Positions 1 through 64,000 of a stretch of DNA of 64,000 nt are shown here, piece by piece. The first letter of the stretch is position 1; each line of letters starts with the position of its first letter. This DNA comes from Bilabrum cf. latius (taxonomy: Eukaryota): assembly GCA_965178125.1 (NCBI GenBank), contig OZ237740.1, forward strand, positions 558,001 through 622,000, in the 5' to 3' direction. The notes below the pieces were generated by a model. The model was not told where the DNA came from, did no database searches, and was given only the letters and a program-made list of their open reading frames with translations. Position numbers and translations under genes: made by a program.

Positions 1-3000
1 GATCCGGATCCTGCAAGGGATGCGCAGCCCTCTGCGGTTCCAAAGTCCGGTAGTAGCGTGGCGTCGTTAGGCAACGTCGATAGTGACGATGATGGTGGCA
101 GTATACTTGAATCCCTACACGATACAAGAATGGATGAGCCAGTCCGCCAGGCGATGCTGGCCGAAGCCCTGGTTATCAGGGCTGGGATAGTGGAGGAAAT
201 TGAGGGGCTGCTGGTCGAGAAAGCAGCTCCTGGGATAGTGGAGGAAATTGAGGGGCTGCTGGTCGAGAAAGCAGCTTCTGCTCCTTCTACCACTGCTCCT
301 ATCTCAGATGTATCGGCTGCCAGTAGTAGCAGTGGGACAGAGGCTGCAACTGACAAGCCCTCACTGGCCGAGGAACAGATCGAGGCACTGGGTGCCTTGG
401 CATGCTGCATCGAAGCGGCCCAAGATCCTGCAATGGCTCTTCCTATCCACGAGAAGCGAGTTGGTCTAGCTCTTGGATCTCTTGGCTTGGACTCAGAAGA
501 GTTTGAAGAAGCTCTCGAGGGGCATGGCAACTGCCTGGTCCTCGCCGGCAGGCCCGACGACGCTGTGGCCGTACACTTGAGGCACATGGACGCGATCGCT
601 GATTGCAAGGGCCCGAAGAGCGACGAGCTGCTTGCCGCCCTCACATGGCTGGCCGACTATGCGTCGAAGCTCGAAGACATCTCACCAGAGACGGTGAAAT
701 CCTTGACGATTCGGCTGCTGAAGCTGTCAGCGACCGTAAAAGGGGTGGCATCAGAGGAGCACGAGAGCGCCTTGCAAGCCCTCCTCAAACTCCTGGTATC
801 AGCTGGAAACCATAGGAGTGCAACCACTCTCCAAGAGCAGCACCTTGCTGCAGTTGCAAAAGCAGAAGGTAAGGAGACCGACGCATACCGGACCGGAAGG
901 CTCTAGCTCGCCCGATTCCTGCGGGCTGCTGGCAGGCCAGAGGAGGCCCAGACAATCGCAAGAGATGAAATCAAGCTAGTAGGCCGTACGTACGGCATCG
1001 GCAGCCAGATACACCTCGAAACTATCAAGATGGCTGCGAGCAAGTATAAACGGAAGAGCCGGTCTTTATGGGATAGATGGGAGCCCCCATTGGAACGGTT
1101 GTGCATATCGCTGCTTGATGAGGCCGTGGCGAATGCAACGGAACGGTGCGGCATGGACAGCGAGGAGGCACTGCAGTGCATTGTCAGACGCTCTGAGATT
1201 CTGGAGGATCTTGCTTTTGACGACAAGAAGCCGGAATGGTCAATGGCTGCGGTTCAAACGGCACTGAGGCTCCATGGGTCCTCGAGTTTCCAACACGCTC
1301 GGGCTCTGTGCGCTCACGTCCGCAGCCTGGTTGACAAGCATGACGCTGCATCAGCCATTTAGATTCTAGAGAACCATCTTGACATTTATAGAGACGGTGG
1401 GGCTGGTTGCGACCTACTAGTGCGTGAGGCGAGAGGAGCCCACTGGCAGACGTGTAAGAGGTGGCGGACTAGGTCACGGAGGGACGACGGCAGCGCCTAC
1501 CTTCCCTTGATTCAGCGGCTTGAATCAGTGATCCTCGGTGGAATAAAAGCCTTGCACGGCACGCAGGCTGGGGAGGATGCCGCCCTAAAGTACTGGGCAC
1601 TCTGGTGGGACTTCTGGTCTGAGCACCGCGGCATGTTTATGCCTGAGAAGCTCTTCTCCTGCTTTGCGGCAGCGGTTGCCTCCTACAGCGGAGAGGACTC
1701 CGGCTCGTTCCTGATGCTCCTGTAGGGCCAGGCCAAGAAGTGTCTAGAGGTTGCAACAACCGTGCACCACCCCGAGCCGTGGCGCCTTTCGGATAGATGG
1801 GCAGACGGATCTCTAGACTTGTCTCGGGACACCCCGGAAGGCATCGCATGCAGGGCTTGGCTTGATGCGGTCAGGGCGGCACTGCCCATAGAGGAGGTGA
1901 TTGACTGCCTGATGCGTCTTGTCGAACGAGAGCGGCACCGTCTCCCCGAGAAAGATGCTACTTAGCTACTTGGCAACATCCTGAAGCTGCCCCATGCGAG
2001 ACCACACGAGGCATCTCTGAAGCTGAGCTTCCTTCGTCGATATATGAATCTGGAACTGGGGGTAGAGGACCTACACGGAGCGGGTGGTGAAGATCGTGTT
2101 GTCGCTGACTTGCACATGGCACTACCGGCTGTTGGCGCCCTCATTGAGCAGCTTATAGGTCGGAACAGCTCCGAGCACGCCCACCACCTGTAGCAAGCAG
2201 CCCTTGGGGGCGGATTATGGGAGTGGTGTGATTCCAAAAGGTACGAGTACGAAACAGCTCCCGTCACCGCGCGGTATCTTCGTCGCCTCGTCGCGGTGTA
2301 TGGAGGTGCGAGCGATGCTTGCAGGGATGCGGTTCTTCATGTTGTCCAGGACAACCAGCTGACCGCCGGTTTCTGCTTGCTTGGGTAGCGCGTTGGTGAA
2401 CCGAGTGGCACTACAGATGCTTTGAAGCTGCTGCAAGCCATCGTTAACATTTGGCTTGATGCAGTGCGCGAGAAGTACGGGACACACAGCGCTGAGTACG
2501 GCCGGGCTTTGGTGGAAGAGCTTGCCCCATCGTTTGATGATCCTGATGACTTTGACCCGTTTCCGTGGCTTCACTCTCTTGTTCAAGAGCATGTCGATGC
2601 AGCAGAGGGCGTCCACAGCAGGGGCAGCCCGGAGCATGCGGGAGCTCTTGATGCCTTAGTGAACTTCTGCCTGCCTGGAGTCTCAGATAGCCGCAGTGGG
2701 GGTGCATTGCAAGTCGGACTTGCTGGCTTCGAGGAGCTCACAGAGCGGGCGTTCGAGGCCAGGACAGCCGTTGCACGCGAGCTGATGGACAGTGGCCGTC
2801 CTGGCGGAGCTTTGATGTGGTTGAATAGCGCCATCGATCACTGCGTCTTCCGATGCGAGCAACAGGATGCTTCCATGTCTGTGCTGCAGGATGGCATCAA
2901 GATGCTCTCGGATGCAGCAGACCGGACGCATCCGGGGTTCCGCCGCGAGTGCATGAAGTGTTTCTGGACAATGACAAATGTCAACAGTTCTGAGTGGCCT

Positions 3001-4344
3001 GAAGAGCTCTCGCACCAATGCTGCAAGCTGGCGTGCATGGTGCTAGAGTCTGTGGATGTGGCCTATGGGCGCGGTTCTTGCCAAGCCATTCGGTTCCGCG
3101 AGATGCTGATGAGCACCCTAGTTTCCGCTTATAGATAGGCGGACACCATCCGGGACGCGGTAGCATAGGTGCTTGTTCGCACTGTCATTAGTCCCGAGCT
3201 TGCAGGCGTTAGCCGTGGATCTGAAGGCGACGTTGGTCTGGGCTTGCTGCTGTACCAGTACATTTAGGAAAGCGGACCTGAAGGCAAGGATTCGCTTGTG
3301 GCAGACAGGTGGTCCAACAGCACGGGAGGGCCCGCCAGTGCTGCTTCAGCTGGGAAGGGCACGGCGGCTGCCTCTACAGTCGGCATGTTTAGAAAAGTAG
3401 TGGAGCAGCTATAGTACGAAGCTGAGGCCGAAGACGACGAGCCTGAGGATCGGGTGCTGTATACAGTGCTTGCAGATCTGGCCGACGCGGTGGTGGAGCG
3501 TGAAGACTCACCATCACCGGAGACAATCATGCTCTTGCAACGGATAAGCCAGGTCCCAGCTGAGATTGAGGAGCACAACCTGGATTGCTTCCTTACGCCT
3601 TTGCTAGACTGCATCGCGGAGCAATGCGTGGCTGTGTACGGCAGGCGGAGCAAAGAGCACCTCTCGGCACTGTGGGATGTTCTGGAAGACAAAGCTGGAT
3701 AGAGTGTCGTCAATTTCTATGAGTGGGACTCCGATGTTGAGAAGATATAGCAGCTAAGGGAAGTCGGGAAGACGTACAGAGCTTTGCGGCAAACCATGTT
3801 GCAGGAGGGGCTGATCCACCCGGATGAGCTGCCCCCTCGCCCATACGGACACTTCAAGGTTGGGATGGGAGGCGGGGATACTGCAGGGGACGTCGGTGGT
3901 GATGGAGGCTCAGCCAAGTCACAGGCAGCCTCCGGTGCTGGAAGGGACGAATGTCGCGATGCAGGAGCGAGACAAACAGCGGCTGATGCGGAGCACCACT
4001 ACACCCCTCATCGCATCAGGATGAAACAGCTAATAGATCCAGCGCATGCCCAATCTACCGTGTGTGCACCTGTTGGCGAGGAAGACTTGCTGCCAGGAGA
4101 GTGCCCTGCGCTGTTTATGTGTGAAGGCGACCTGTTCGATCGCAAGTGGTGGCAGGAGGACGATGGGGCGTGGCTCCCGCAAGCAGTGCGTGATAGAGTT
4201 GAGTGCGCGGTGGGTGCGAAAGGATCGACAGTCGACGACTCCGTGCTCCATTCAGGTGTCCGATCCGGATCTGGTGCTGCTGCCGATGAAGAGGCATGCG
4301 CTAGTGTAGAGGGTGTCGGTGCTGCGAGTGGTAAAGATCGTTAA
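1..4344 (+). CDS. Large helical/TPR-like hypothetical protein, 5'-partial (TAG read as sense)
   Basis: Seven ORF-track fragments (58, 1030, 1420, 1762, 2422, 3454, 3784) share one frame that is open from base 1. The only interruptions are 12 TAGs (904, 1360, 1723, 1963, 2191, 2386, 3136, 3166, 3265, 3412, 3700, 3748); it ends at TAA 4342-4344. The TPR-like call is inferred from helical Ala/Leu/Glu periodicity. Confidence 0.8.
184..279 (+). repeat. In-frame 48-bp tandem duplication (GIVEEIEGLLVEKAA x2)
   Basis: gggatagtggaggaaattgaggggctgctggtcgagaaagcagct occurs twice with a period of 48. Confidence 0.9.
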
Positions 4345-4821
4345 GTGGTGCACGATGGCTGCCCGTGAGAGTAGACCCATTGCTAGTGCAAAAAGTGTAG
4401 CTACGGCTGTTCGAGCCTCTAAACAAAGACTGCAAGTTTACACATGTCTGATCTCCTTTGCTCGTAGTTGGATTGGGAGCTTAGAGTGCACCGGAGGCGT
4501 GTCTGGCCTCGGGTCTAATGGTGGTGGGAGTTCGGATCCACGGTTGATGCAAAAATTAGAATACTCTACAGTCTAGTTGGTATAAGAATATCACTTGCGA
4601 AATAGGTAGACTATGAGCCGTGCTGCTGATAGGATCCTACATGGGTGTATCAGGTGTTCCTATCAGGTGTTCCTGTCACCAAATCCCGGATGCCCGTTTT
4701 GTACCCCTAGATCCTTGCTTGGAAAGGTCGGCCTTTCAGGGGTATCCGGGATACGACCCCCCCAGCTACGGTCATACGGGGGGGACGACGGACATCAGTA
4801 ATGTCGATCTACTGTTTCCAA

Positions 4822-6900
4822 TCAGTCTTGCAGACTTGCCCGCTCCGCCACTATAGTGTCAGCTAAGTCCTAGAGTAGTCCGTAGTACACCTTGCTGTTC
4901 AGCTCGAAGCGGCACTTGGGACACGGAAAGTTCTTCGTGTGGAAGGGCTCGAACCAGAAGTTGACCGCTGCTGAAAAAGCTCTTTCGGACCCATTGATGC
5001 CCTTGAGCTTAGCACTAGACTTACCTGTGTTAGCGAGGGCTTGGAGCGGGACTGCCGTCCCCGGCTCCGACAAGACCTCATGCCACCAGTAGCTCGGCAG
5101 CCACACGGCCTCGCCTGGCTCAGCGACGCACACGTGGATCCCATCGCGCCGGGCCTCATCGAACGCGGCTTCAGTGTAGATGTGACGCATCTTGGTACTA
5201 TAATGCATGCCATCGTCGGTCCATGGCTGACTAGTGCTTGTGAGAACCCCCACGTTGCCGTACCCTGCTCCTGAATCCCGCCTCTCCACAGCCGCAGCAC
5301 CGGCACTGAAGGCAGGTCGCCTTGAAGTGTTGGCCTCCATGAGGTCAAATGGAGTATTCACCATCGATGTGCTCTCTAATAGTTTCCCGGGCACGGCCAC
5401 ACCCGCCCTTGCATCCACCCTCAGCTGGCCTTCCTGCAGGTGGCCCTCCCCCATGCGATCGTTGCTGTATGGAGGCATCATCATCACTATCTTCCTGCCC
5501 TGCAGAGGTACCAGGAGGTTATCAAACGCATCAAAGTGCAACTTTCCGACGGTGTGGCCGTCACCAAGCCAGAAGTTCTTATGTGCCAGCCGAAGGGCGC
5601 CCAGACCTGGGAGCAGCTCGTCGTGGCTGCGGAGTAGTCGCGCCAGGCTAGCGAGCTATGAGCCTACAGTAAGGTACTCCACATAGGCAGATACATTGGC
5701 GTGGGCGCCATGCCGGCATGCAAGAAGCCGAACCTCGCTGGGGCTTGCGCTACCTGGACTAACAATGCTTGCAGATGGTTGCCCTGCGCTGGCGTCTTGG
5801 TTCTAGACACTCGGCTCGATTTCGTGGCAGGCCATTTGGGCTCGGCACATCTCCTCTATCCTGCTGCTGGTAGTAGCATTCATCGGCTGACGGAGCGACA
5901 TGGCGCCATTTCGAAGCAAAGCGTAGCACATCACCTCCACCAGCCGCGCATCGGTTGGCTGTGGCCTGACAACAACTCGATCCCTGCTTGCCAGCAGGCC
6001 AGCGATTCCGGCTGGTGGAAGCCTGCCGCCCACGCCGCCCCCAATCCACGACGAGAGGTCAGCAGATCCCTCAAACACCCCATCGGTTCCAGCCAACTTG
6101 CTATGCACTACTGCCTGGCCAGCTGCCTCAAGAAGGCTGCTGGCAAGTAGACCAGCCTGCTGCTACAGGGCATCCGCTGCTGGGTCACCGGCTGTCAGGA
6201 ACCCAAGCGATGCATTCGAAGCTGAAGAACGACTCGTCACCGGCCTGGCTGCTATTGGCACATTTTCAGGCATGTGCCTCACTTTGGATCGCAGGCGGAT
6301 AGTGGCCGGACGATGCCTGCCGACAAGCTCCATCAGCAGCCGATGCGGGTGCTCAGGTGACGACCCAACCGACTGGGCATCGATCTGTCGGCAGGGGAGC
6401 ACGGTTCCGAGCCGCTCTAGGCGTAACAGCGCGCGCTTTGCTCGTCGTGAAAGCATCAAGTCTCGCCATGCCCGCCATGCGCCGGTTCTTGGTCTACTAT
6501 TAGTACTATTAGTAGCAGGTGTCGGCGATGCCAGGCTGGATGTAGGCGCTGTGCCAGGTGAGGCACTGGAGGAGCCACGGCTGTGGTCGGTCTCAAGCCA
6601 ACCGTGGTCGGATGCAATGCTCTGAATGGCTGATTTGATCCTTCTAGGTAGTAAGCCAGTCCGCTTGCGGGTGTTTCGGATCGCCTCACTGGCTTGCTGC
6701 CGCTCGGACTGCGAAGGGTGCGCCTCACCAGACCAGAAGGTCATCTGCTCTGCTGCGCCATCAGCTGCTACAAGTATCCCCGATTGGTCCCATGTACCTT
6801 TGCTGGCTTCACTACGAAGCAAAACTGTGTGCAGGCATGTCAAATCTGGCAAACGCCTTTGCCAGATCGCCAAATGTGGCACTGCTACCTGATCTCCAGC
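4822..6900 (-). CDS. JmjC / cupin-like 2-oxoglutarate-Fe(II) oxygenase
   Basis: Motifs NFWLGDGHTVGKLHFDAFDNLL (HxD), PGEAVWLPSYWWHEV and AVNFWF. Fragments 6163, 5803 and 4870 are in one frame joined by TAGs; reading through TAG 4870-4872 reaches TGA at 4822-4824. The start is uncertain. Confidence 0.8.
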
Positions 6901-7267
6901 ATGGCGGCAGCTAGTTTCGTTAGTGAAAACACAATCTAGAACAGCTAAGCCCTAGTCATCACGCAGTGCATCGCGAACAAAATCGCAAGTGGAGGCTTGC
7001 GAAACACGTGGCTGCACTAGAAGTTTTGTCCTTTCGCTGAGGATCGAACCACGACCCTAGTCCCGCAACTTTACCGATAAACAAGGCTACGCGCGTCCTA
7101 AAGAGAATATAAAGATGTTAACTATTGCAATTGTTGCCAGATATGGCATCTAAATGTGCATGGGCACGGCTATTCCACCCTAAAATTTGCCGCTGGATGA
7201 CGAGCGATCCGGGTCTACTAGTTTGCTGCTGTCACGCAGATTCAACAGCAATAAGGACGCAAACGCC

Positions 7268-7708
7268 ATGAGTTCTAAGGATTCTTCCCGTGCAACCGAT
7301 AAGCCGAACGAGGCTGGCGTGAACCTGTCCGATGAACAGCTAGCGCTTGGCGAAATGAAGCGCAGAAGTCGAGAAGCAAACGACGCGGCTCACGCTGAAA
7401 TATAGGTTCGACAGTGGCGCTGCCACCCCCGCCTGTACGACGCAATTGATTCAATTACACGTATAACGGACTCTGGGGTTTCTGAGATCGGCCATAGATT
7501 CGGGTTGCTGTATGCTTGCATGAAATCGAAACCAGGGTACGAGCCAAGAGCGGAAGACCACCCATTTGCCACAGATCCTGAAGCGCATAGGCCACGTTGG
7601 AAATCTGGCGAACTTGTCAGGAACGCAAAAGTCGGCTGGGAGGCAGCCGAGGCGAAGCCTGGCTCGAAATCTAGTCCGAGGGAAACGAAAAACGGCGGCC
7701 GTTCGTGA
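7268..7708 (+). CDS. Small hypothetical protein (~146 aa)
   Basis: ATG 7268; one TAG at 7403-7405 joins two in-frame ORFs; ends in TGA. No recognisable motif. Confidence 0.55.
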
Positions 7709-7782: not shown

Positions 7783-9834
7783 TCAAGTCCACGGGCCACG
7801 GTTCGTGGCAGCCGTAATTGCTCTGGTTGCCGGCCCTGCCGGTGCTCTGTCGCCTGGTTTGGCTCTTGCACCCCCCTGCTGGCCCGCCACCTGCTGCGCC
7901 TCCTCGTCCTGCCAGACCGCCCACTGGCTGCGCTACATGCCATCTCCTTGGGAGTGTATGGCCGCATGACCTTGCGAGCGGCCGCCTGGCTGGCCACTAA
8001 GCCGGGGGTGGAGCGGGGACACAGGCCGGCGCCCGCTCGGTGAGGACCGGCCGGCTGCCGTCATGCTGGCAGAGAAGCGGCGCTCAAGGACTCCCTGATG
8101 TCCTGACGGTGCCATCGATGCTTGATCGTTTGCTTTGTTTGACTCTCTCGGTGGCGCACCTGTCTCAAGAGCCAAGGAAGGCGAAGAGGAAGACGAAGAG
8201 GAGGAGGAGGAGGCGGTCTCCTGATTAGGCCCCGTGCTGGCAGCGGCCAATTGCCCGCCGCGAAACCTCGCCACTGACCTGCGGGCGCGCTCCCTCGCGT
8301 TCCCTTCAATCTTTCTGCTGGCATGACCCAGCCGCCTGGCTGCATCAAGGAGGGTACGATGGGAGGACCTAGAGAAACCGACCTGCTCTATGGTGCTGGC
8401 CAGCTCTGCAACCGCTTGCGGGCCGTAGTCCAGAGAGACCGCCCTATCCGTGATGTCTCTCAGCATGGCGGCGGCAGTGCTGCGGGGTGGGATGGGATGG
8501 GAGGGGATGGGATGGGATGGGAGGGGGAACTATTGTCAATGAGAAGAGTGGGGCCTGGGCAGCCGTGTTTGAATCGGTGTTGTCGGCAGATATACGTTTT
8601 ACCTGATAGCCATGGTCTGGTAGCGACCCACTCACCTATCAACCGTCCCATCGGCGCTGCTGCCTGCGTCTCTCAGCTCCCTGGCAATCCGGGCAGCTGA
8701 CTGCACGAGTTCGTTTCGCTCTTGCGATTCCATCCGAGCAGTTGCTCCGTCGCCCTGCTCGCCCTTGCCGTGCTCAAGGCCCAAAGCCGAGGCAGATCCA
8801 CGCCCCTCCTCGCACTTGCTGGGGTCCGAGCTGACATCCATGAACAGCACGCCGTCGTCGATGAAGGACCCGGGAGGTGCGTGACCCCCTGCGGGCGGTG
8901 GAGCCCGTCCCTCCTGCATGCGCTGCTCGGAGACGTGCCTGTTTGCTTGTGATGCGTACGTAGGAAGATGCCCATGCATACGTACAGTATCACCCGTTTT
9001 ACTTCCTGTGCCTTCGTTGTACGCGCGATGATGGTCGTGGCGAGCTGCGTGAGGCCAGGCCTAGCCCCCCTCTGCAGGAGCATCCCATTGTTGGGGCCAG
9101 TCCGTGCTGTCTCGGGAGGACGCCGTGACTGCAGCTGACGGCTCCTAGATGTCAGTACCAAGGAAATTGTTTTGAGTTTGAACGGGCCTGCCGAGAACGC
9201 GTTCAAATGACTAGTGCTCAAATGGGTTCCGCGACAGATGTGCTCTGGCATCTCTTGGTCGGGTCTCAGCAACCAGTGCGTCAATGAGGTCTGGCACTTG
9301 CTATTCTGCGGTACTAGAATCGATCGTAATATATGGAGCTGCCACTGGCAGCTTGTCGAGCCAGCCGTCGTCGCTCCGACCAGCGGTAGCTGTCTCTGCT
9401 CCCTCCCATTGCTGAGGACTCGCCACTCGCCGGCGCTTTGCTATCGGCTCGTCGCTCCGAACCAGGGAGATTTTCGGAGCTTCTGGAGTTAATGCCTGTC
9501 TTTGTTCTGGAACCGTTGCATCGCCACCTGCAATGCCTGCTAGCTTCCTACTAGTTGCTTGCTGCTCGCTGCCAGCGGGTGCAGCCTGTGGATGCTCTAC
9601 GTCATCTGACGGCGTAGCTGGCAGACCTCTCATGTGAAAATCATCCAAGAATGCCAGGTCTGAGACTGCCTTGGCCCTCTTCCGTGTTTGCTTCCGACGA
9701 ATACCGCCAGTGCGAGAGAGCGCAACGGTTTTCACATGCAACGACTTCTGCCTTGCAGATGTTCGCGTGGTAGCTCCCTACTGCTTACTCTGCAATATGT
9801 CCTTCCTTTTTCTTGCTCCTCCTGTCCAAATCAT
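7783..9834 (-). CDS. Hypothetical low-complexity protein; intron 8480-8635
   Basis: ATG 9834 (MIWTGGARKRK...). The frame is open across six TAGs. A GTGAGT...CCGCAG intron preserves the frame; ends at TGA 7783-7785. Confidence 0.6.
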
Positions 9835-9944
9835 TGATCTCCTGGCTTGCTACTGGGTAAAATGAGGAAGCGAGCACGGTGAACCTCGCCGAATGCACCC
9901 GCACGCGTGCTTGGTCGCACGAAATTCCACTGCCCCCATGCTCA

Positions 9945-10397
9945 ATGGCAAGGTCTACAGATAAAGGCTCAGGATCAGTGGATGCCAAGTTGAATTTGTA
10001 CGAGATTCTCGGCATTCAAGAAGATTGCGATTCAAAAGCTATCAAGGAGGCCTTCCGGAGAAAGGCGCTACTTTTGCACCCCGACAAAGCACCAAAAGGA
10101 CAAACAGGATCCGCTGCAGCGTTCGCAGAAGTGCAAAAAGCTTTTGAGATTCTTAATTAGCTTGAGTCCAGGGAAGAATACGACGCTGGGCTGAAACGGC
10201 AGCGATCCATTGAGAGAGTGGCATTCGAGTTGTCCGTGGATGAAATGGAGTATGATGAGGCAACAGGTCGCTACTTCAAGAAGTGTAGGTGCGGAGAACA
10301 ATTCTAGATAGCAGAAGATGACTTGGTGGATGCAGAAGGGCGGGTATTGATCGAGTGTACAGGTTGCAGCCTGCGTGCCACTGTGATCGATGGTTAA
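9945..10397 (+). CDS. DPH4: Diphthamide biosynthesis protein 4 (J-domain + CSL zinc finger)
   Basis: J-domain with the HPD motif (LLLHPDK). After TAG 10158-10160 and TAG 10305-10307 come CRCG...IECTGCSL and TAA. The full 150-aa architecture appears only if TAG is sense. Confidence 0.9.
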
Positions 10398-13400: not shown

Positions 13401-13978
13401 GAGAGGAGCCTTGAACCAGATTGGATATCCTATGCTTGTAGTTTCACCGATACGTCCCCTTTTTGCGGGCCGGGGATTCCGATGGCTCGCAGCAGGCTAT
13501 TGCCAACGACGCAGCCCGCTGCACGTACAGCCAGCTCAATCGGGACAAATTCGCCTGCTGGCTGTTGATTGCTGCTAGATTGTACGCGAATAGATGCAAT
13601 TTGCTTGGCCCTATCAAGCGTCTTTTGAAATTCGTCGTGAGAATGCCTCGGCTTGAACGAATCCATCCATGCTGCGTCCGACTTGGCCACATTTTCTAGA
13701 TCAAGCATCTCCTTTGCCGTGATTCCAAGATCAACTTTGGAATCACTCAACATGTCCATCTAATTTTTTCGCTTCACTGCTGCAACTACTTCTTCATGGC
13801 GTGCAATCCTTTGCCTGCTGCCATCAACTGCGCAAATCACGTAGAAGCCACTATTGCGATTCCACTCCTAAACTATGGCAGGAATCGATGCATCACCAAA
13901 CTTGAATTCGATTTTCTCTCCAACTACCGAAGTTGGACTGCTCATTGTATCAAACACTAGCTGTTTCAGAAATGACAT
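10436..13978 (-). CDS. Hypothetical protein (~1180 aa) with C-terminal coiled coil
   Basis: Single frame from ATG 13978 to TGA 10436-10438 with about 13 TAGs and no TAA/TGA. It joins ORFs 13430, 12452, 11780, 10889 and 10661. Confidence 0.7.
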
Positions 13979-14059
13979 TGTAGGCGGAACCAAAATGCGC
14001 GGCGCCTCCAACGGCAATGAAATCGGTGGATTCAGAAATAAGCCAACCTTGCCCTTCCG

Positions 14060-15582
14060 ATGGCGTTCAGAGAACTTAGAGGTGGGATTGATGATGAGAG
14101 TGCTATATGATACTTCAATTTTCGGTGCATAGTAGTTTGTATCGCCAGTTCACTGAGATTGCTGCTCTCGCAGATTTTACGGAGCAGCTTAGAGCTCTTG
14201 GCTACCCAAGGCGTGTGTCTGTTGATAGTTTCAGGAAACCGAATTTCCCTTTGGTCGCGGATGTCTTGTACTGGTTGGTGCACAAGTGAGTAGCATATGG
14301 CGGTGCTACGCACATTGAACGATCGCATTCAGATCATAGTGAAGGGCACTTTCGGTTCCAATGCTATTCACGCAGGTATGATCCACTCGTGCGAATTCAA
14401 GATAAGATAGAAACTGAACAGAATCGCGTGGAATTTCTGCAGGCTGTCGTGAAAGCCGTTGCTCGAGGCGCCCACATAAGCATGAAGCCTAGAAATTTGT
14501 ACCATGCGGACGGTCGTGCGGTGAAGGAAATGTTAAAACTGACGCGGGTAATGTATGATTCACTTCGAGTGGCATGGGCCGAGCAAGATGGGTTCGGAGA
14601 CGACCGCGAGGACGAGGATATTGACCACTCCGCCGAGCTGACCGCCAGAGCCGAGGAGTTGGGACAGCTGCGGCAGCTGAGCAGAGACATCACGGAAGCA
14701 GGAGCGCGCCTCTACGATTTGTTGGAACAAGAAGAAAACATCAGAGCCGAGCGGGAGAAAGCGCTCCGATTCCTGGACGGCGTCTCCTCCACCCTGGATT
14801 CTAGGCCGAGGAGCGAGCAGGACCACGTCGAGAAATCCATCCGTGAAGCAATTGCCCGGGTGAAGGAAGGCGCGGAGCAGCTGGAACGCCAGTGCAGGGA
14901 CCTGGAAGCCGACAAGAAACAGGTGGAAGCCAAGCTGGAGAAGAGGAAAGCAGAGCTGGAGCGCGCCCAGAAGCGACTGGCATCCATGGCCAACGTCAGG
15001 ATGCCCTTCATGGACGAGTACGAGGCGCTCGAGAAGGAACTCGCGGAGGAGTACGAGCTGTATGTGCAGAAGCACAGGAACCTGGATTTCCTGGAGCGGG
15101 AACTGGACCTCTTCGACAAGAGGGAGCAAGGCAAGATCCAGGCCTCCAACCGTGCCCTCCAGAGGCTCCAGAAAAAGCTCAGAGACGAGGAGATGAGAGA
15201 GTTTAGGGGGGATGAAACCGTTGATGATGACACGCTGGGGATGCCAAGCGGTGGCCGGGCTGGGGGTGCCGCGGGGGGTGGAAGGCCGGGGGCAGCGACG
15301 GGGAGTCGGCGCGGGAGGCGGGGAGCTGGTGGTGACGCTGGTCTTGGGGATGCGGACGGTGGCCTGGGTGCCACGTAGCGCAGCCCAGTGGTGCGTGGGC
15401 GCATGGACGATCTAGGAAGCGATGATGAGGGCAGTGATGGCAGCGACGGTGAGAGCGAGGGGTCCTCCGGCGGTTCGGATGATGATGACATGAGCGAGGA
15501 CTTCACGGACGAAGACGAGGACATGTCAGACTCTGTTTCGGGGAGCGAGGGGGAGTCGTCTGGCGGTTCCGATAACTTCTGA
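14060..15582 (+). CDS. CLUAP1: Clusterin-associated protein 1 / IFT38; join(14060..14081,14174..14285,14376..15582)
   Basis: The spliced N-terminus [48 protein letters not shown] matches the family, as do FMDEYE and the acidic tail ending DNF. TAG 15376-15378 lies before the tail. Two GT-AG introns restore the frame. Confidence 0.92.
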
Positions 15583-20260: not shown

Positions 20261-23529
<3,269 letters not shown>

Positions 23530-53200: not shown

Positions 53201-55528
53201 CGTCACCAGTGCCTCGACCGTGGCTCGAGGCGGGTCCCCGCGGCCGAGCCTGCCAATGTAAACGATTTCACCAGAGAGTAGCAAACTAGACGCCTGGCCT
53301 CTAGCAGCCCCACGACCGCTTCCTGTCCCTTGCAGCAGGGCAGGCGCCACTTCACGTAACTTTCCAGCGGTTACTTTTCCAAACTCGCCGACAAAGTCCT
53401 TGGAATGCTCCTGGCCCTGTGAGACAAGCGCGAATGCAGCGTGCACGGGAAGAGGCTTGGCCCCCACGGCACATGCCATCAGCAGCTTAAGCGTGCGACG
53501 CACGTTCTCGCCGAGCACGACGTGCGTGACCCTTGGGTCCACCGCGTTGCTGAGCACAGCGGAGCCTGCCCTGTGCGCAGCTTCACCCACAGCAGTGCCC
53601 AAGTCTGGTAGGTGCGCAGTGGCAGCCAAAAGCGCCTCCGTCTCGAGCTACGCAAGCCCAGTGCTCGCGATCACCACACCGGCAGCATGTCCTGTGGATG
53701 AAGCAGACCTGGTGCTTCCAACAATGGACTGGCGCTTCGAGCGAGCTGGCTCTCTGCGCGTATTTCTTCCGCTACTATTTCTCTTGGCCCCGCTAGATGC
53801 CCCCCGTATTTCCACTCGCCTCTTCTTTGTCTTGCTGCCAGCTGTATATGCGCTGGACCCAGCTTGAATGCCGCCAGCCCTGACTGCCCTGCTGCTAGTA
53901 GCAGCAGTCCTCAGCATGGTCGCAATAGGCATAGCGTAGCACTCCTCGGACTCAGCCTCTGAGTCGGTGTTGCTGGAGGCAGCCGATTTAGGACTCCTTC
54001 GGCCAGCGACAGACGCTTCTGGTGACTTTCGACTCCTGCTCGCACTTGGCCTGGACCTCACAGCACGGTTCCTTGACGCAGCCTTCGCCGTGTCGGGAAC
54101 ATCGCCCTCGCTCTCGTTGGCCTCAGAGTCAGAATCGCTGACATCCATTGCCTGTAGGCCGTGGCGGACTACCTGCCACCCGGGCAGCGGAGAGCCAAGG
54201 GCAGACGAGGAAGCCAGTGCACGGGCAACGGCTGCATCGGATGCCTCCATCGCTGCACGGCGTCGGGGCCTCTGTCTCTGCCGAGATGAAACGGAGGCCA
54301 GGCCAGGACCGAAGGCATCAGAGTTTAATTCTCGGTCGTTGCTCGACTGCTGCTCTTCCAGGGTTTCCTTACTCTCTGCGTCAGCGCCGTTGCCCAACCC
54401 AGATGAGCTGTGCCTGCCTCTCGAAACGACAGATCGTCTCCGCTTGCGCCCTGCAACAGAGCCGCTGGTGCTGGATTTCAACGTCGAGTGAGATGCGGGT
54501 CGTTTCGGGTCGGTGCCTCTAGCGGGTGGTTGTCTACCGTTTGAAGCAGCTGTCTTCCCATTTGCCCGAGTGCTACAAGCAGCAGCGGAGGTACCATCAT
54601 CAGAGGGCGAGGAGGCTCTCCTTTTCTTTGAGCGGCTTCTGGGGGCCCTTGACCATGATTTGCCACTGGCCCTCTCCGATGGTGCCTTGGACCGGGAGCT
54701 CGAAGCACTTGCAGCGCCACCAGCCTGGGGCGAGCGAGCAGGTGCTCCGCTGCTCGGTTGCTTCGCTACCTCATTGCTGGCGGCTGCGGCCTAGCTGAAG
54801 CCAAGCTGGGTACCCGATGCACTTGACCCGAGCCACGACAACGCCTGCGCAGCCTGCTGCGCCCCCTGCGACAGGTCGTCAGGACGGAGGTTCGTAGCTT
54901 TCGATTTGGAGCCCTCGATGCCAAAGCCTGCCTTGCGACTGGCTCCTGCGCCAGGAGACACGGCAGCGGGCGACGATTCGGCGACCTGAAGTAGTGCAGC
55001 TGCCCCTGCCAAGCCGTGTTGCGTAAGAAATGGTGACTCCTCTGATTCTGGTTTCAACTTCGCCGCAGCCGCTGTGCCGGACGACCTTCTGCCATGCAAT
55101 CTCACGGGGCTTGATCGGAACTTAGGATCGTCTGGATCAGGCAAACCAGCTACGTCAACTTGAGACAAACCTACATTTGGAAATTTCGACTTCCTGGCCA
55201 AGGTTCTGGTTGAGCGGCCTGCCTTGCCAGATAGTGCCTGCGCGACCACGGCAAGTGGCAGGGAGTAGTCGTCCTCTTGACCGAGCACGCTAGTGCCTCT
55301 CTCAGTATCAGCGATGAATGCAGGAGTAACCAAAAAACCACTTCCACGCGGGTTGTTCTGGGCTCTACGGAGGACGCCCACGTCGCCGTCCTGCCAAATT
55401 ATGTGCGTGGCCGTCGTCGACGTTCGTGCGATACGCCCACCAAATCCTCGGATCTTGCGCTCCAGCTGCGAGTTCATCCGCTACCCATCGATATAAACAT
55501 CAACATAGAACGATTTACCGGTCAACAT
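50234..55528 (-). CDS. Microcephalin-like BRCT domain protein (~1764 aa)
   Basis: N-terminal BRCT (LTGKSFYVDV...FGGRI...ATHIIWQDG...LVTPAFI), a central tandem BRCT (VTHVVLGENVRRTLKLLMA; VTAAGG; EWLMHSL), and S/R/G-rich linkers. One frame with 8 TAGs; ends in TGA. Orthology to MCPH1 is an inference. Confidence 0.75.
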
Positions 55529-55623
55529 AGCAGACCAGACCACTCGAAACAAGAATGAAAGTTCGAATTCAAACAAATCAAATAACGATAAAGTGCACCT
55601 TACCACACTATCACTCTGGCGAA

Positions 55624-56796
55624 CAAGCCTATGCAATTTGGGGACACCAAATGTGTCCCCAAATCCCCAAACAAGCCTTTCCGAAAACAATTATTTGGGG
55701 TTTATTTGGGGACGGCCTGATTTGGCAGGAAACTATTATTTGGGGGTTATTTGGGGACGATCCAGGGGCGTCTCACTGGCCCTTCCGATCGGCAGGCCGA
55801 GGGGTAGCAGCGTGGTGGAGCTCCTTGCGATCCAATGCAGGACACTCGTGTGTGTGCCAGAACATCCGGGTACTGCTTCCTAAGCGCCTCATGGTACCGG
55901 CCATTGCCTACAGACAGCGTGGGTACACTTCCTAAAGACGACGAGTCCAGGGGGGACCCCCCAGCGCCCACCTTGGGGCGCCCTGGCACCGGCAGCCTAT
56001 ACTTGTGCCAACGCTCGCGTTCTTGCACGGGCAATGGTAGGCTCCCTAGGCCCTTGCTTGCCTTTCGAAGATGGCATGATACAATGGTAGATTAAAAATA
56101 GATCAGAGGGCCCCACCACTCTGTCTTGTCGCTGACGGCTGTACCGCTGCGTCCGACATCTGTGACTGCCGAATCTTCCGATGACGGCCTCTGGACTGGG
56201 AGAATGTATCCTCTCCTATTCTCCCAATCCAAGCCCTAGGCCTGAACCTCTCCGGGTCGCACCACCCCTTCCCACATTCCTGCCCTGTCTTTGCCCACCT
56301 GCCACCTTGCCCACCTCTCCCTCCATTTCCCACCCCCCTTTCTGACTCACCCCCATCATGCCACACGACTTGTCGACTTGCCCAAGCACTGCGCCCAGCG
56401 CGCAACCTCAGCCTCAAAGGCGCGAACCCCTGACGCACAGACTCAGTGCGCGACAGCTGACCTACCAAGCTCGCCGGGTACCCAAGAAAAGAGCAGCTGG
56501 CCCAGGCTTTCCGATGTAGGATCGTCAGTGATTTCACGCATCTGAATCGCCTTCGCCCTAGGAAAAGGAAAGCAAGTATACGTGGCATAAGTTGCATAGT
56601 CTAGGACGACGCAAGCATACCCGGGTCCCGGAATCCAGCTCCGGAATCCGGATTCCGGATCCAGTATATAAGTACACATTACTACCAAATAAATATAGAT
56701 TTAATACGTATATGAATGTAACGTGTATATATATCACTGTCCCCAAAAGCTTATTTGGGGATTATTTGGGGACGGTCCCCAAATTGCATAGGCTTG
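55624..56796. mobile_element. Non-autonomous DNA transposon (hAT-like), 1173 bp
   Basis: Perfect 22-bp TIRs (caagcctatgcaatttggggac 55624-55645; gtccccaaattgcataggcttg 56775-56796). 8-bp TSD ctggcgaa at 55616-55623 and 56797-56804. Subterminal ATTTGGGG repeats at both ends; no transposase seen. Confidence 0.9.
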
Positions 56797-56896: not shown

Positions 56897-58657
56897 TTAC
56901 GGTCGATGAATGTTGCCGAGAGCCAGCCCTATAACCTCGCCTTCCCTGTCCCTTTCCAATACCACCTCCGCATCCATCGCCCACGTGGGGTAGCACTTCT
57001 CGTGCGAGCTGCCGAGCACCCACCCTCTGCACTTGGACATGAATTGGAGCAGCTTCTTGCCGGGACGGAGCAGCTTCGGGCCGTAGGTCAAGGACCACTT
57101 CAGCGCGGCGGCAGAGTGGGGATCTTGCAGCGTGATGTCGCCTTTTGCAATGGCATTTTGCCCGCTTTTCGGCAGATCGGTCAGCGAGCTCCTCTCTAGC
57201 AGCACGCGGAGGCCGTTCGCCACATTGTCGCCTAGCCTGCGAAGGCCAGTTCTAAGCAGATTGCTGTGTACCACCAGCTTGTTCTGCAGCCCCCCCTTCC
57301 GCTTTTTCTTCTTGTTTGTGCTCTTTCCCTGGATCCACCAGCACGGCGACAGCTCATCCTCTTTCAAAGTCTCGGCGTTGTTGATGTCAAGGTATAGGTC
57401 TGGCGAGGACGTGGCATCCTCGATCACGTGCTCCGCGATCTCGTCCAGCACGTGCTTCTTGACCGTCACCTTGTGGAAGATTGGCCCGCCCACCACCTGA
57501 TCTGACATGAGCCAGTTCACGTGCTGCTTCACCTTGTCCTTGACTGCCTCTCGCGCGCACTCCTTGGAAATGGGCATCATTGCCACGACGCTGGCCGGGA
57601 CGTGCTCCACGATTCGTAGCACGCTCTACAGTGTCCTCTGCACCTCCATCGTCATGGATGCAGTGGCATTACACCATGGCTTTTCGTCGCCTCGAATGCA
57701 GGTCTGTCTGCGCTTGTCGTTTGCTTCAGCGATGCTGCTCTACATATCCGCGAGGTAGCCAAGCACCTCTCGGCCCTACACCCCAACATGGCTTGCCGTA
57801 GCGAAGTTTGGGTCACACAGCCTCTGCAGCCTCCTAGGATTGTTCTTAGCAGCCTTGATGGTCGCACTTTCGCTCTGATGCTCGCACCACGCACTCGCCT
57901 ACGGGTAGTCCACGAGCTGGTACAGGATGTCGCTGGACTCCGCCACCGGCTCGATTACCTTGCTGAGCTGGTCACTCTCCGGAAGATTCGCACCAGAAAG
58001 AACCAAGCGTTTGCCAGGATACTTCAAGCGGGGGTGTAAGACTTCTGTCATGTCACTCAGGGAGTGCCACAAGTTTACCTCGTCCAGCAGCACAACGCCA
58101 CGAGGATGGGCATTCTCGAAGCTCGTCAGCTTGCTCAGAGCCCTCTGTTTCGAATATTCGCTGTTCATATCCCCTGCAGTCACCTAAAAGACACACGATG
58201 CTTTGACATTTATGTTTTCCTGCACGGAATTCTTGCGGGCGCAGCAAGCGATCTGATGTGGGCTGTTCGCAACCCTCTCATGCGTAAACAAGGCGCGACC
58301 CAGTGTTTCTGCCAGAAACGTCTTTCCCGTGCCTGTCATACCAAACATGACTATCGTTTGACCTTGCCCCTTCTACGCGTAGTCCCTCACTGCACTGGTA
58401 ACCAGGTTGTCAATAACAGGATCCTGGCACTTGATCGCGCTCTTTACCATCTCATAGATCTAGCCCATGCTTTCGTTGGGAATACAATTACATTCCACAT
58501 CCTCGCACCCGTTTGGCTGCTGCATGTCACCAGGTGACATGATAGGGGTGCTTGCATCGGCGAAAGCGTTCCACTCGAACCAGCCTGAAAACTTCGCAGA
58601 CAGAACCGGATTATGCAGGCAATGAATAGCCACTAGGAATAAAATTAAAGCTCTCAT
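56897..58657 (-). CDS. Secretory-pathway AAA+ ATPase (torsin-like), ~586 aa
   Basis: Signal peptide MRALILFLVAIHCLHNPVLS, Walker A IVMFGMTGTGKT (~58320-58355) and Walker B VVLLDE. One frame with 7 TAGs; ends in TAA. Confidence 0.7.
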
Positions 58658-58762
58658 TGGTGTTCAAAAGTTTAGAAACTGTGGTTCGCAAAGCCGCCAT
58701 CCACCGACTGCCGCGAATTGTAAGGTGGAAAATGTGACGATTCACAGACCCAACGGGACTTA

Positions 58763-61229
58763 TCACTGCCCGATCTGCAACAGAATACCTGCTCCACCGC
58801 CGTTTGCAATAGAACCCATCCCGCTACCCCCCATTCTCAACGAGGGCACGGCAGGCGGGGCCATCAACGCAAGCCCTAGCCTGATGGCTGGCACCCCTGC
58901 CAGGTACAGGAACAGCGCCAGGCAACTCGCCAGAGTGATGAAGATGATTCCCACCGCAGGTATCAGCTGCAACCCCGCCACCCCGATTGCAGCTGTTAGC
59001 CGTCCCATGAACTCCTTGAGAACTGCGATCACTGGCTGCACCAGTCCTGCCACCAGTGCCTTGCTTCCGCTTTGGCTGCTCTGCGCCAGCCTCTGCTCCT
59101 GGATGTACCACTCCACGCAAGGGTCCATCTCCACTTGTTCCCTGGCCGCTTTCCCCACGGTGCTCGACAGCGTGTTCATCATCTGCAGATCATAGGCCGC
59201 CGCTGCGGCGCTGCACCCCGTGGGGACCGACCGCTTGGAGGCCTGGATGTGCTCGACCACCTGCTTCCGCAGCGAGGACTGATATGCCTGCATGGCACCG
59301 CCCAAAAAGAGTCCAAACAGAGCAAGAACCGCGATGTTGCAGCTGGCAGAGCACACGGAACTCATGGCAGCCGCCGATGCAAGGCTCCCAGTCGGTGCGG
59401 GAGCAGGAACACCCCGGCCAGCACTCGCAAGTACTAGCTGGCCTCCAGCTGCGCCCTGGCCCGTGAATGGGACGATGCGTCCCTACCCGCCACCTGCAGG
59501 GTCAGCTGCATGTTCCCCGTATGCCGCCTTGACGCCACCTCCTCTTTCTTCACGGGGGGCATTTCTGGCTCCAGATGCTCGCGACCGAACCCACGTGAGG
59601 CTGCCAGCTCCCAGTTTGACGAGCCAAACAGTGAGAGGCAACACGACGTCGATCAGGAGGTGCAGCGCGGCCCCGGCGCACGCGAATGACAGCGAGATCG
59701 ACTCTGGGATACCCAAGCGGTGCACATGCTCTGCAATGGCCCTCACAGTGTTGGAGGCGAATCCCTTCAGCTGAGTGAAAGAGGTGCGCGACACGGGAGC
59801 CTCCACAGTCACCGTGGTGGCGGGGTTTGCGATGGCAGCCGAAACTGCGAGGGCGCCCGTGAGCTGGGTCAGCACGGCAAAATCCTTTTCGTGCATTCCT
59901 TTCGCGCTCGCTCGCAGCTCCGCCACGTCGGACGCATTCGTCCCTGGAACCGCTGCAGCCAGGCCGCCGGCACGGTACAAGGAGGCTAGCAACGGAGCAC
60001 CTGCTTGGTGGGGGATCCGGATGATGAGGCGGCCCTCGTCCAGCTCGTTCGGTGAAAGTCCAAGCTGCTCGAGGGTGTTCTTGAGACGCGATACCCGATC
60101 GGCGGCGCGAATCGCTGCGTCGCCGGTCGTGCCGTTCTCGCTGTCTACAAGCAGCATCCTCGACACGGCAGCAGACTGGAATTCGAACGAACTTTGCGCT
60201 CCTGCTCCGCACTCTGTTGCGCTTGATTGCTTGCTGGTCTCCTTCTTGTTCTGCTGTTGCAATGGTGCAATGTTCTCTGGCTCGCTGCTGTCCCCAGGGA
60301 GTGCGGGGACGGTGCAGAGACTGGAAGCGTCTGGGAATTGCTCTTCGATCACGCTCCCGCCAGCGATGGCAAGCAGTCTCGACCTCGGAGTCACAAATGC
60401 ATAGGACGACAGAAAGCACGGCTCGTCCGATGTCTGCTTAGCTTTCCCTACCTGACGCTGACACTTCACAGAGGTGCTCGATGCTTCGTCCACTGCCTCG
60501 TCAATGGCAGCCTGTTGGTTCCCATACAGGGCGGCCCCGGCGAGTTTCGCTGCTGCTACGGTTGGAAGGTGGTGGACAACATCGACCATCATCGCAGCCG
60601 AGCTAGCTGCGGTATCATCAGACTTTTCTACATCGAACTCTGCCTCCAAGATCCCGTTGGCCACGACATCCGGCCCAGCCCCATGGTCCTTTGCACCGAG
60701 ACTCGTACCCGTAGTGGCAACAACCGGCTGCCTTGGATCACTGTTGATACTTATAGGCGCATCGTCTGCGTGGATCTTTAAAAGTTTGGTTGTTTGGTTG
60801 TTTGGTGGCCGATATGGCGCTGTATGATCGTCGGGGAGGGGTGCAGTGTTTTGTCTCGTACTCAAATTCTTGTCATCGCGATGCAACGAAGGAATGCACG
60901 CATAAACCTGTACTGCTTACCTGATGTAGCGCTAGGCATAGAAGCAGCAGTAGCCAAGTCCCCATCAACCGGTTCCATGCGAAGAACGGGGACACCGTGT
61001 TCAACTTTGCGCGCATCGCCCTTGCGAATGTCCACAGGTTCGGTCCTCTTTTTAGAGAGAGATCGCCTCCGTGCTGCGAATGCGGAAGAGGTCTAACATT
61101 CGACCCAGATTTCATTTACATTGTCGAGATCCCAGAGCCACGAGGCAGGACTAGGTACAAGCACTCACCCTCTGCACCACTAGACAGCATGGCTGCAGCA
61201 GCAACTACAAGAAGAACTCGAAATGACAT
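58763..61229 (-). CDS. Unknown signal-peptide, multi-TM protein A; complement(join(58763..60765,60921..61073,61169..61229))
   Basis: Signal peptide MSFRVLLVVAAAAMLSSG, two phase-compatible GT-AG introns, C-terminal hydrophobic helices, and one TAG (59483); ends in TGA. Confidence 0.65.
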
Positions 61230-61370: not shown

Positions 61371-63301
61371 ATGCGTGCCATGCTTGCTTCAATGATCTTA
61401 TGCGTAAGATATTTCAACTTCTTTGCGCATGGTGACGCTCTATGTTTCTCTCAAGAGGTGTAGTCCTCGGCCCATCCACCTAGTTCTCATCACAGGCAAC
61501 CGCTGCTACAGCCTCAAGCATTCCAGATAGTCTGTCTCTGAATGTAGATGCGTCCAACTGCTTGCAAATGGCAACTAGAATTGGTCAGCCGTGCCTTGCA
61601 CACCACACACTGAACAACACAGGCGTCGCACCCGGGGGAAGCTTCTCGATCGACGCGAAGTCTGCTGCAGCGCAGTGGCCTATCCACGGCGGCGCTGTAC
61701 AACTAGTGGATCCAACTGTTATTAATGTACTCTAGAGATCCTTGGGAAGCACGAAAGGCTACGTTTCACTCGCACAGTCCAAGACAAAGAAGCGTCGCAG
61801 AGTTCTGCAACGCAACAGTGCAGATGCATCTTCTGCTAGTGGATGTGATGCGCTATTGAGGCGCATCTCCAGCCCAAGGAAAGGGGGCACGTTTTTAACT
61901 ACAGAGGACCTCGCGCATGGGAGTGCCTGTCTCGCGGGCAAGTTCGTTCTGGACGCATCAGGTGGGACGCAGTCTGCCGATTCCTCAGAAGCTGCGTACG
62001 CTCAGTTGCATCGGCCTGGCCCCGGCAGCATCATCATCAATGCGAGCAGAAGAGCAGCAGCCCCGATCATCGAGGTGATGTCCAGGCTTGCCCTTGTGGT
62101 GGACATGGACTCGGTGTCGGCCCAAGCGGATAGCAAAGTCAGCGCAAGCCACGACGAAGCCCCGGGCCGCGGGCGCGGAACCGAAGCAGAGTTTGTGGCT
62201 GCACTGGACGATACACTCGTAAACATTCAGCAATCGAGACACCACGGGCTGGTAGACCCGGACGATGTCCGATTCCGTGCGACCGCAGCGACTGCCTTCG
62301 CCATCGCTCAAGCACTCGCAGCACCAGACACGACGGTGACATTTCAGCCCGGCCGCGCCCAAGGCATCTCTCAAGCAATGCGTAGGCGCCAGCAGGACTC
62401 ATCGGCGCTCGGCTGGGAGCCCACCACTATGGATCTGGCGGTGTCAGCCTTCGTGTTTGTGGTGGTTCTCGCTGCAGCCCTTGAGGTGGCAGACATGGCA
62501 AGCATGTCATCCAAGGAACAGGACTACGCAAAGAAGCTGTACGACAATGGGGGCGTCCCAGCCCTCGCGATTAGCGTGCTGAGCACGGCGTCCCTGGTCG
62601 CGCTCTGCGTGCTTGTGTGCTCGGCGGTCTGGAGCGAGTACAGGATGAGCGTCAGCCGCCAGTTCGTCAAGCTGCTTGCAGAGAGGGCGGAAGGGGCCCC
62701 GTTCGGGTGCGGGGAAGACGCTTCCTGGATGGCTTCCATGGGCAGGGGCCTGGTTTCTGCGGTGACAACGACGTTCGGCGGCAAGGACGCGTGCTAGAGG
62801 TGGGCAGAGCTCATGACGACCGTGGATCTGAGGGATCACGTCGACTACGGATATGCTCTCGGGTAGGCGCTCGTGGGGCCGGCCGCCTCGGTGGCCGAGA
62901 CGCTAGTGCAGGGGGTTGTGGGGGTGGCGCTGTCCGTGGGCTTCCAGGCGACTCTCGTGGTGTGCCTTCTGGCCCTGATTCTGACCCTCAGCCTCAGCAT
63001 CGTGGTGCGGTTCGCGGGGCCAGTGCTCATCTAGGGCCGGCAGGAGGTGATGCAGGGGTTTGTGAACTTGCAGCAGAGTCGAATTGCACACGCAGAGCAC
63101 CAGCAGCGCCAGAGGCCCCATATGGGGGCGGTGGCAGCAACCGGGGTGGCAGCCAGTTCGGGTCAGGAACAGAACGCTCTGCAAGCGGTTACCGATGGCC
63201 ATGCAGCTGGTCTCATCCTACCAGGGGGCGGACAAGGCACGGGTGGAGCGAGTGCTGGCGTGACACCAAGCAGCAACGGCGAAGATGATGCGGAGGATTG
63301 A
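61371..63301 (+). CDS. Unknown signal-peptide, multi-TM protein B (paralogue of A); join(61371..61403,61496..63301)
   Basis: MRAMLASMILC|ATAATAS across a 92-bp GTAAGA...CACAG intron; 4 TAGs; ends in TGA. Shares motif blocks with protein A. Confidence 0.65.
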
Positions 63302-63415
63302 TGTTTGTGATGGGCACAGCTGTCACGCTGAGGACACCTAGAGATCGAGTCACGAACATGAAGGAACATTCGGTAGATAAGTGTCTTCCGCTGGCAAAGA
63401 GTAGATCTATGCGAC

Positions 63416-64000
63416 TTACTTGCGTTGGCGAGCCCGTGAACCCTTGCGAGACTTGATAGCACCTGTGCCACGCGAATCGCCCCGACCCCTCATGCGCACT
63501 GGGCCCTTGTTCTACATGTCTTTCGATACCTGACGACGCTTCTTCCTAGAGTGACTAGGGGGACCCGTACCTTTTGCAGGCTACAGCAAATCGCTCTCAC
63601 CCACTGACTCGCTCTGATCCTTTGACTCGTCTCTGTTGATGACCCCCCCTTTCTGACAGCCGTCCCCATGGGTATACCGCAGCACCACACCGACAATGAC
63701 CCCGACAACACCTGCAGCCACAGCCAGTGTCCACATCTGCATGTTTGATCCATACCTCCCCGCTTGCCCCGCTCCCACGTCATCCACTGCTTCCACCGGG
63801 GCCTTCCACACCTCGCACACATCACGCCCGCCACCGCAACCTTTCACATCCAGGTCAGCCAGAATCCCGCCCATGCCGCCCGCCGCCTCTCTCCACATCG
63901 ATGACACCTCTCCAGCCTCCATGCGCCCAAACATAGACATGCTGCCGTCAAACACGCGCTTCCTCCCACGCACCACCGGCAGCAATCGGCTGTCCACCAT
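63416..64000 (-). CDS. 3' end of a single-pass membrane protein (5'-partial)
   Basis: TM segment WTLAVAAGVVGVIVGVVL, then a basic tail across two TAGs to TAA 63416-63418. Confidence 0.55.

Follow-up and report, generated by a model that had tools for sequence, protein, structure and literature searches.

We analysed 64,000 nucleotides of genomic DNA from Bilabrum cf. latius (contig OZ237740.1 of assembly GCA_965178125.1, positions 558,001 to 622,000 of the forward strand; hereafter the window, numbered from its first letter) and focused on the genetic code in which its genes are written, in particular on the meaning of the codon TAG (UAG in messenger RNA), which recurs within its reading frames. 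Our results suggest that this codon very probably specifies glutamine, with UAA and UGA as the stops. The window has a guanine plus cytosine (GC) content of 59% and some 20 protein-coding units spread over its two strands, many of them identified through matches to Pfam and the Protein Data Bank (PDB). An earlier reading made from the letters alone (the sequence-only reading) had named an acetyl-CoA synthetase (ACS), DBP2, a kinesin, DPH4 and CLUAP1, and had described a GC-rich, intron-containing nuclear genome. Pfam or PDB matches bore out all five identities, and the description agrees with the composition and with GT..AG introns that are crossed by spliced contigs. The units are as follows.

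1-4344, forward strand: gene for a TPR-like protein, open at the window start; 12 in-frame TAG, TAA end.
4822-7389, reverse strand: frame of a JmjC/Cupin_8 protein; 9 TAG from stop to stop, the upstream ones perhaps in an untranslated region (UTR) or intron; TGA end; no PDB matches for the JmjC region at 1e-8.
8632-10041, reverse strand: long frame of putative coding status; 8 TAG, TGA end.
10002-10394, forward strand: DPH4-like exon (DnaJ and CSL zinc finger); TAG at 10158 and 10305, then TAA.
10436-14149, reverse strand: gene without a Pfam match; 13 TAG, TGA end; a weakly conserved orthologue adjoins CLUAP1 in L002, a contig of an environmental relative described below.
14172-15582, forward strand: CLUAP1/IFT38 gene; GT..AG intron at 14286-14375, TAG at 15376, TGA end.
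15867-20072, reverse strand: protein with CLU domain and TPR_12; 8 TAG, TGA end; a word-based homologue search with this protein gave no matches.
20261-23464, reverse strand: DEAD-box helicase of the DBP2/DDX5 type; intron at 21011-22333, TAG at 20990-20992, TGA end.
23699-27238, reverse strand: repeat-rich protein (EEGEH and PS repeats); 15 TAG, TAG-TGA end.
28961-33064, reverse strand: ankyrin-repeat protein; 7 TAG, TAA end; an intron at 33049-33191 connects an upstream exon.
33476-35692, reverse strand: hexokinase-like gene; TAG at 34253-34255, TAG-TGA end.
36016-38526, forward strand: acetyl-CoA synthetase of at least three exons; TAG at 36555, TGA end.
38634-43094, forward strand: kinesin; 8 TAG, the one in the P-loop at 38985; TAA end.
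43567-46539, forward strand: hybrid histidine kinase A; 5 TAG, and a CAG at 44293 opposite a TAG of copy B; TGA end.
46791-49769, reverse strand: hybrid histidine kinase B, paralogous to A and inverted relative to it; 4 TAG, one of them at 48897-48899, TGA end.
50234-55690, reverse strand: low-complexity protein with a BRCT domain; 8 TAG, TGA end.
56897-58663, reverse strand: P-loop protein with a weak AAA_22 match; 7 TAG, TAA end.
58763-60916, reverse strand: frame without a Pfam match; 1 TAG, TGA end.
61436-63301, forward strand: frame without a Pfam match; 5 TAG, TGA end.

TAG behaves as a sense codon throughout the window, since long frames appear only when it is read through. Under the standard code we found no stop-to-stop open reading frame (ORF) of at least 800 amino acids. 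Reading TAG as sense yields 10, TAA as sense none, and TGA as sense a single one. With TAG as sense, 16 ORFs reach at least 500 amino acids and the longest measures 1818. When 100 first-order Markov simulations of the window, which served as a null model, were read in the same way, the longest ORF was 629 amino acids and those of at least 500 averaged 0.06 per sequence, compared with the 16 observed. The 19 long frames contain 117 in-frame TAG among 17,567 codons, whereas TAA and TGA are absent from them by construction, as frames were defined from stop to stop. For comparison, the 35,134 triplets read in the other two frames of these stretches include 310 TAG, 101 TAA and 742 TGA. TAG is not depleted in frame, and TAA and TGA are missing across frames of up to 1818 codons. 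Once likely UTR and intron parts were trimmed, the remaining 16,515 codons comprised 104 TAG and 672 CAG or CAA. The kinesin, DBP2, ACS, DPH4, hexokinase-like and CLUAP1 genes all contain in-frame TAG. Among the four residues closest to a TAG, glutamine makes up 5.8%, against 6.2% around glutamine itself and a background of 4.1%, a weak signal to which a tandem repeat contributes.

The frames close with TGA in 15 of 19 cases and with TAA in the other four; the DPH4 exon, which also runs into TAA, brings the TAA ends to five. The sequence-only reading had tallied 21 gene models, 15 ending in TGA and 6 in TAA. Its claim that genes end in these two codons only was upheld, and its counts differ slightly from ours (20 units recognised, 15 with TGA and 5 with TAA). 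The TAA ends bear on a rival code, NCBI translation table 6, in which UAA and UAG both encode glutamine and UAA would merely be rare in this GC-rich genome. This is the commoner pattern among eukaryotes, according to PMC11687900, and our sample is small. CAA, however, accounts for 206 of the 715 CAA and CAG (CAR) codons in the 19 long frames (29%), so that a glutamine-coding TAA should occur in frame some tens of times, and not one is present in the 17,567 codons. Moreover, a codon-usage score that is positive within the four long TAA-ended frames drops to around zero or lower past their ends, as it does past most TGA ends, and in two of these four frames more than 100 codons separate the TAA from the next in-frame TGA. 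We consider it highly improbable that UAA shares the meaning of UAG here.

The identity of the encoded residue is best seen at strongly conserved sites. In the kinesin, the TAG at 38985 aligns with the P-loop glutamine of KIF11. In the DBP2-type helicase, the TAG at 20990-20992 aligns with a glutamine of yeast Dbp2, and this column is glutamine in 117 of 117 motif-bearing homologues (120 listed, three of them without the motif). A third line of evidence comes from the two hybrid histidine kinases: among the 29 codons that differ between their arms over 708 nucleotides of 96% identity, one is CAG in copy A (44293) and TAG in copy B (48899). The two genes form a convergent inverted pair in which, in addition to the 708 nucleotides, the 3' ends match without a single difference over 508 nucleotides (46013-46520 and 46795-47302), with 274 nucleotides between the arms. 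Judging by the sequences, this arrangement looks like a recent duplication or gene conversion.

A search with CLUAP1 recovered DNA of an environmental relative in two metagenome assemblies, represented by contigs L001 and L002, which are 99.98% alike. The CLUAP1 of L002 shares 92% protein identity and about 75% DNA identity with that of the window, and both this gene and a CLU-domain piece on the contig contain in-frame TAG. In CLUAP1, two TAG codons of the relative stand opposite window CAG codons (14440 and 14674) in fully conserved surroundings; in the CLU-domain piece, two more stand opposite a window CAA (18950) and CAG (18752). Every well-aligned TAG of the relative (4/4) is thus paired with a glutamine codon of the window. 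The relative's CLUAP1 ends in TGA and its CLU-like piece in TAA.

Another TAG, in the tail of CLUAP1 (window position 15376), is common to the window and L002, offset by a one-residue indel, and lies 68 codons before the gene end. Among the 61 aligned codons past it, 46 residues are identical and 24 codons carry synonymous changes only, and the differences fall 8, 6 and 37 times on the first, second and third codon positions. Because they follow the pattern of a translated frame, translation continues past this TAG. At least this divergent environmental relative uses the same code, as a second, closer relative probably does (see below), so the code change predates the split of the window organism and its relatives. 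The relative's CLUAP1 also contains about 170 nucleotides (L002 2049-2219) without a counterpart in the window gene, probably an intron that the window gene lacks.

At first sight, the hexokinase-like gene provides a counter-example. Its TAG (34253-34255) aligns with the glutamate of the F-E-K motif in mammalian hexokinases, a glucose-binding residue. When 1.84 billion representatives were searched exhaustively, 150 homologous proteins were retrieved, of which 124 carried the motif, in 126 occurrences; the column holds glutamate 124 times, glycine once and glutamine once. The sole glutamine belongs to P0240, an orthologue 67% identical to the window protein and with the same flanking residues. 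As this orthologue has glutamine where the window writes TAG, the position is glutamine in this lineage. Glutamate, the candidate meaning that this site alone would suggest, is countered by the lineage's own orthologue.

The same search returned four pieces that are 89-94% identical to the window's hexokinase-like protein (P0239, P0241, P0242 and P0243), all from one 6414-nucleotide contig of the closer relative. At both testable sites, the predicted pieces end directly before a TAG, once before the internal site and once before the terminal one, which indicates that a standard-code gene caller halted at TAG. Two other breaks among the pieces fall at positions without TAG in the window and are unexplained.

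We next considered whether the in-frame TAG codons could be artefacts, namely assembly errors, sites that are edited or spliced out, or remnants of decayed pseudogenes. Contigs of four sequencing runs from four studies (X1, X5, X6 and X8) were compared with positions 14001-34000, with their pieces partly listed. Letters differed between runs at only 18 places, all in two repeat-like stretches and none at a TAG codon. Contigs of X5 and X8, whose RNA origin is a guess, join exons over four GT..AG introns (14285>14376, 21010>22334, 23330>23474 and 33048>33192). At the 1323-nucleotide DBP2 intron (21011-22333, GT..AG), X5 and X8 each also contain an alternative joint, 21010>21474. All of these joints are absent from the contigs of X1 and X6. 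The X8 contig across the DBP2 junction extends some 27 to 30 letters into exon 2 and so includes a TAG 18 nucleotides from the junction, and a spliced X5 contig (record 12, 4991 nucleotides) carries five in-frame TAG without a single difference from the window. That contig spans about 30747-35880 on the reverse strand, and links the ankyrin and hexokinase-like genes, with the 33049-33191 intron spliced out, which points to either a UTR overlap or co-transcription of the two.

Overall, 22 of the 33 in-frame TAG in 14001-34000 fall in the listed X5 and X8 pieces, 19 of these 22 in pieces free of differences. As the contigs agree and the spliced ones retain TAG, assembly error, editing and splicing-out can be rejected at the covered sites. 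In-frame TAG codons also appear in the two separately assembled environmental contigs, and purifying selection acts downstream of the TAG common to both CLUAP1 genes. We found no point in favour of an artefact and give this explanation practically no weight.

Taken together, the alignments at conserved sites, the codon swaps between paralogues and orthologues and the spliced contigs lead us to conclude, with a probability of about 0.9, that UAG encodes glutamine and that UAA and UGA are stops. The sequence-only reading had proposed this code, and it is now backed by the kinesin and DBP2 columns, the paralogue swap, the 4/4 swaps with L002 and the glutamine of P0240. That reading had also suggested inspecting transcripts at TAG sites; TAG does persist in spliced contigs, with the RNA status of X5 and X8 guessed.

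Several observations weigh against this conclusion. Some TAG codons face residues other than glutamine: the ACS site is lysine in five of five fungal structures (in a context of about 50% identity), one DPH4 site is asparagine once and aspartate four times and the other is serine, and a TAG in the TPR protein faces aspartate or serine in KLC1. At the equivalent place, sibling repeats of that same TPR protein have three Q, one E and one K. In the weakly conserved neighbour gene of CLUAP1, TAG codons of the window stand opposite S, S, Q and Y, and those of L002 opposite A, D, N, E, I and L; in the divergent parts of the kinase paralogues they stand opposite P, E, A, P, H and A. Two of the 20 frames end in TAG-TGA, with about 0.13 expected by chance (P = 0.007). 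ARAGORN detected no tRNA genes in the window, L001 or L002, nor is an eRF1 gene present in the 64-kb window. Finally, the sample is small, with 64 kb from the window and 4.6 kb from a relative.

The first of these points could be taken to mean that TAG encodes a residue other than glutamine, for example Glu, Lys, Leu or Ser. Distant homologues do show Glu (hexokinase), Lys (ACS) and Asp, Asn or Ser (DPH4, TPR), and TAG takes the place of Glu in the EEGEH repeat. These sites conflict with one another, however, and none of the residues suits the kinesin P-loop or the invariant DBP2 column. Another amino acid would also mismatch the paralogue swap and all four TAG-to-CAG/CAA swaps in the relative, and the lineage's own hexokinase orthologue carries Gln rather than Glu. 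As far as the alignments reach, the non-glutamine residues are mutually inconsistent and lie in variable columns, and glutamine alone fits both the invariant columns and the orthologue swaps. We regard a different amino acid as very unlikely.

The TAG-TGA ends raise the question of whether UAG has two meanings, glutamine within genes and stop near their 3' ends. Such context-dependent codes exist in Condylostoma and karyorelict ciliates and, for UAA, in Blastocrithidia. Here, the last codon before TGA is TAG at 33479-33481 in the hexokinase-like gene and at 23702-23704 in the gene at 23699-27238, both on the reverse strand. Besides the excess of such ends over chance, the closer relative's hexokinase piece terminates at the same place. 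Yet every frame in the window reaches a TGA or TAA and none requires TAG as a stop, the CLUAP1 TAG 68 codons before the gene end is clearly read through, and former TAG stops with a back-up TGA would explain the pairs equally well. The two ends may be relics of UAG stops, each followed by a back-up UGA, or may reflect residual UAG termination near 3' ends; a double meaning of UAG seems improbable to us.

If UAG is read as glutamine, ribosomes would insert glutamine at UAG and still terminate at UAA and UGA. From established knowledge, we would expect a tRNA-Gln(CUA), which differs from the CUG isoacceptor by a single base and decodes UAG but not UAA, together with an eRF1 that no longer recognises UAG efficiently. 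The Iotanema spirale report likewise gives a tRNA-Gln(CUA) and a modified eRF1 as the machinery expected of a UAG = Gln code; the eRF1 of Iotanema carries a T32G change (PMC5304391). Searches for Rfam families in the window and in L002 returned no matches.

Beyond the code, the window displays several repeats. The EEGEH repeats are encoded by a 15-nucleotide tandem array of 25.5 copies (26414-26796), in which TAG replaces a Glu codon in six units, and a 139-nucleotide tandem repeat lies at 28660-28942. The stretches 18670-19336 and 27341-28674, where word depth is raised and to which the letter differences between runs are confined, probably consist of repeats or mobile DNA; the first, which has a match in L002 as well, falls within the CLU domain.

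To what group does the organism belong? The sequence-only reading had guessed at a heterotrophic stramenopile. In the CLUAP1 search, the top matches (52-53% identity) carried no organism label. The best labelled match was Cafeteria roenbergensis (48%), followed by Aureococcus and dinoflagellates (42-44%) and Euplotes (38%). A quick, single-gene CLUAP1 tree places the window and L002 beside Cafeteria with a support of 94 in the Shimodaira-Hasegawa-like approximate likelihood-ratio test (SH-aLRT), both branches being long and flagged by a program warning. This group falls inside a 31-row clade (support 95) that includes Aureococcus, with the labelled dinoflagellates, Euplotes and a sponge placed in the other clade. 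DBP2 homologues of fungi and oomycetes alike show 65-70% identity and give no placement, and an ACS protein cluster search returned only bacterial clusters, with no taxonomic signal. The stramenopile guess thus gains weak support, from the CLUAP1 tree with its long branches.

According to PMC11687900, UAG alone encodes glutamine in Iotanema spirale, in Protocruzia tuzeti and in two lineages of phyllopharyngean ciliates, UAG encodes leucine in the rhizarian exLh and serine in Scotinosphaera, and UAA and UAG both encode glutamine (table 6) in many ciliates, ulvophyte green algae, Hexamita, Streblomastix and Amoeboaphelidium. In the full-text literature that we searched, which leaves most subscription journals outside, UAG-only glutamine coding is unreported for stramenopiles or GC-rich flagellates. 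The code itself is therefore already known; the lineage appears to be new, with moderate uncertainty. We put at roughly even odds a hitherto unreported, independent UAG-to-Gln origin in a stramenopile-related flagellate clade nearest the bicosoecids, with at least three divergent members, in which the TAG-TGA ends would be fossils of UAG stops. The members would be the window organism, the form about 93% identical to it and the environmental form (CLUAP1 92%, hexokinase 67%).

If this is true, existing long genomic contigs and transcript data would allow the tRNA-Gln(CUA) and the eRF1 changes to be read directly. Nuclear codes that split UAG from UAA are few (those named in PMC11687900 are given above), and each new origin helps to probe why the two are usually reassigned jointly. 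Unlike most of these cases, the present one concerns a non-ciliate, GC-rich organism with long genomic contigs and environmental relatives, which makes the order of events approachable. There is also a practical consequence: gene callers that use the standard code fragment this lineage's genes, as in the case of the one hexokinase gene stored as four proteins, so that its proteins are mis-annotated in public collections.

Compared with known variant codes, the window departs from those without dedicated stops (Condylostoma, karyorelicts and Amoebophrya), in which all three stop codons occur in frame, as it lacks in-frame TGA and TAA in frames of up to 1818 codons. With the codes in which UAA and UAG both mean glutamine, it shares the capture of a stop codon by glutamine through a near-cognate tRNA-Gln, which is predicted here; it differs in that UAA is not sense (0 in-frame TAA against 206 CAA, and five TAA-ended frames). 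The UAG-only glutamine ciliates use the same codon table, which is NCBI table 15. The sole labelled ciliate CLUAP1, that of Euplotes at 38% identity, nevertheless falls in the other main clade of the tree, and the window is a long stretch of many genes with one intron of 1.3 kb. Long many-gene stretches and a 1.3-kb intron are unlike ciliate macronuclear DNA. The likeness in codon table to Protocruzia tuzeti and the phyllopharyngeans is drawn from PMC11687900, as is the comparison with the rhizarian exLh and Scotinosphaera, which also uncouple UAG from UAA but assign it to leucine and serine, respectively, rather than to glutamine. The closest parallel in decoding may be the fornicate Iotanema spirale, in which UAG alone moved to glutamine and UAA stayed a stop, with a tRNA-Gln(CUA) and an eRF1 of weakened UAG recognition, both of which are predicted only for the window organism (PMC5304391). 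Iotanema, however, is an anaerobic metamonad described from a transcriptome (PMC5304391), whereas the window is GC-rich genomic DNA with spliceosomal introns, and in the quick CLUAP1 tree it clusters with Cafeteria and Aureococcus rather than with metamonads.

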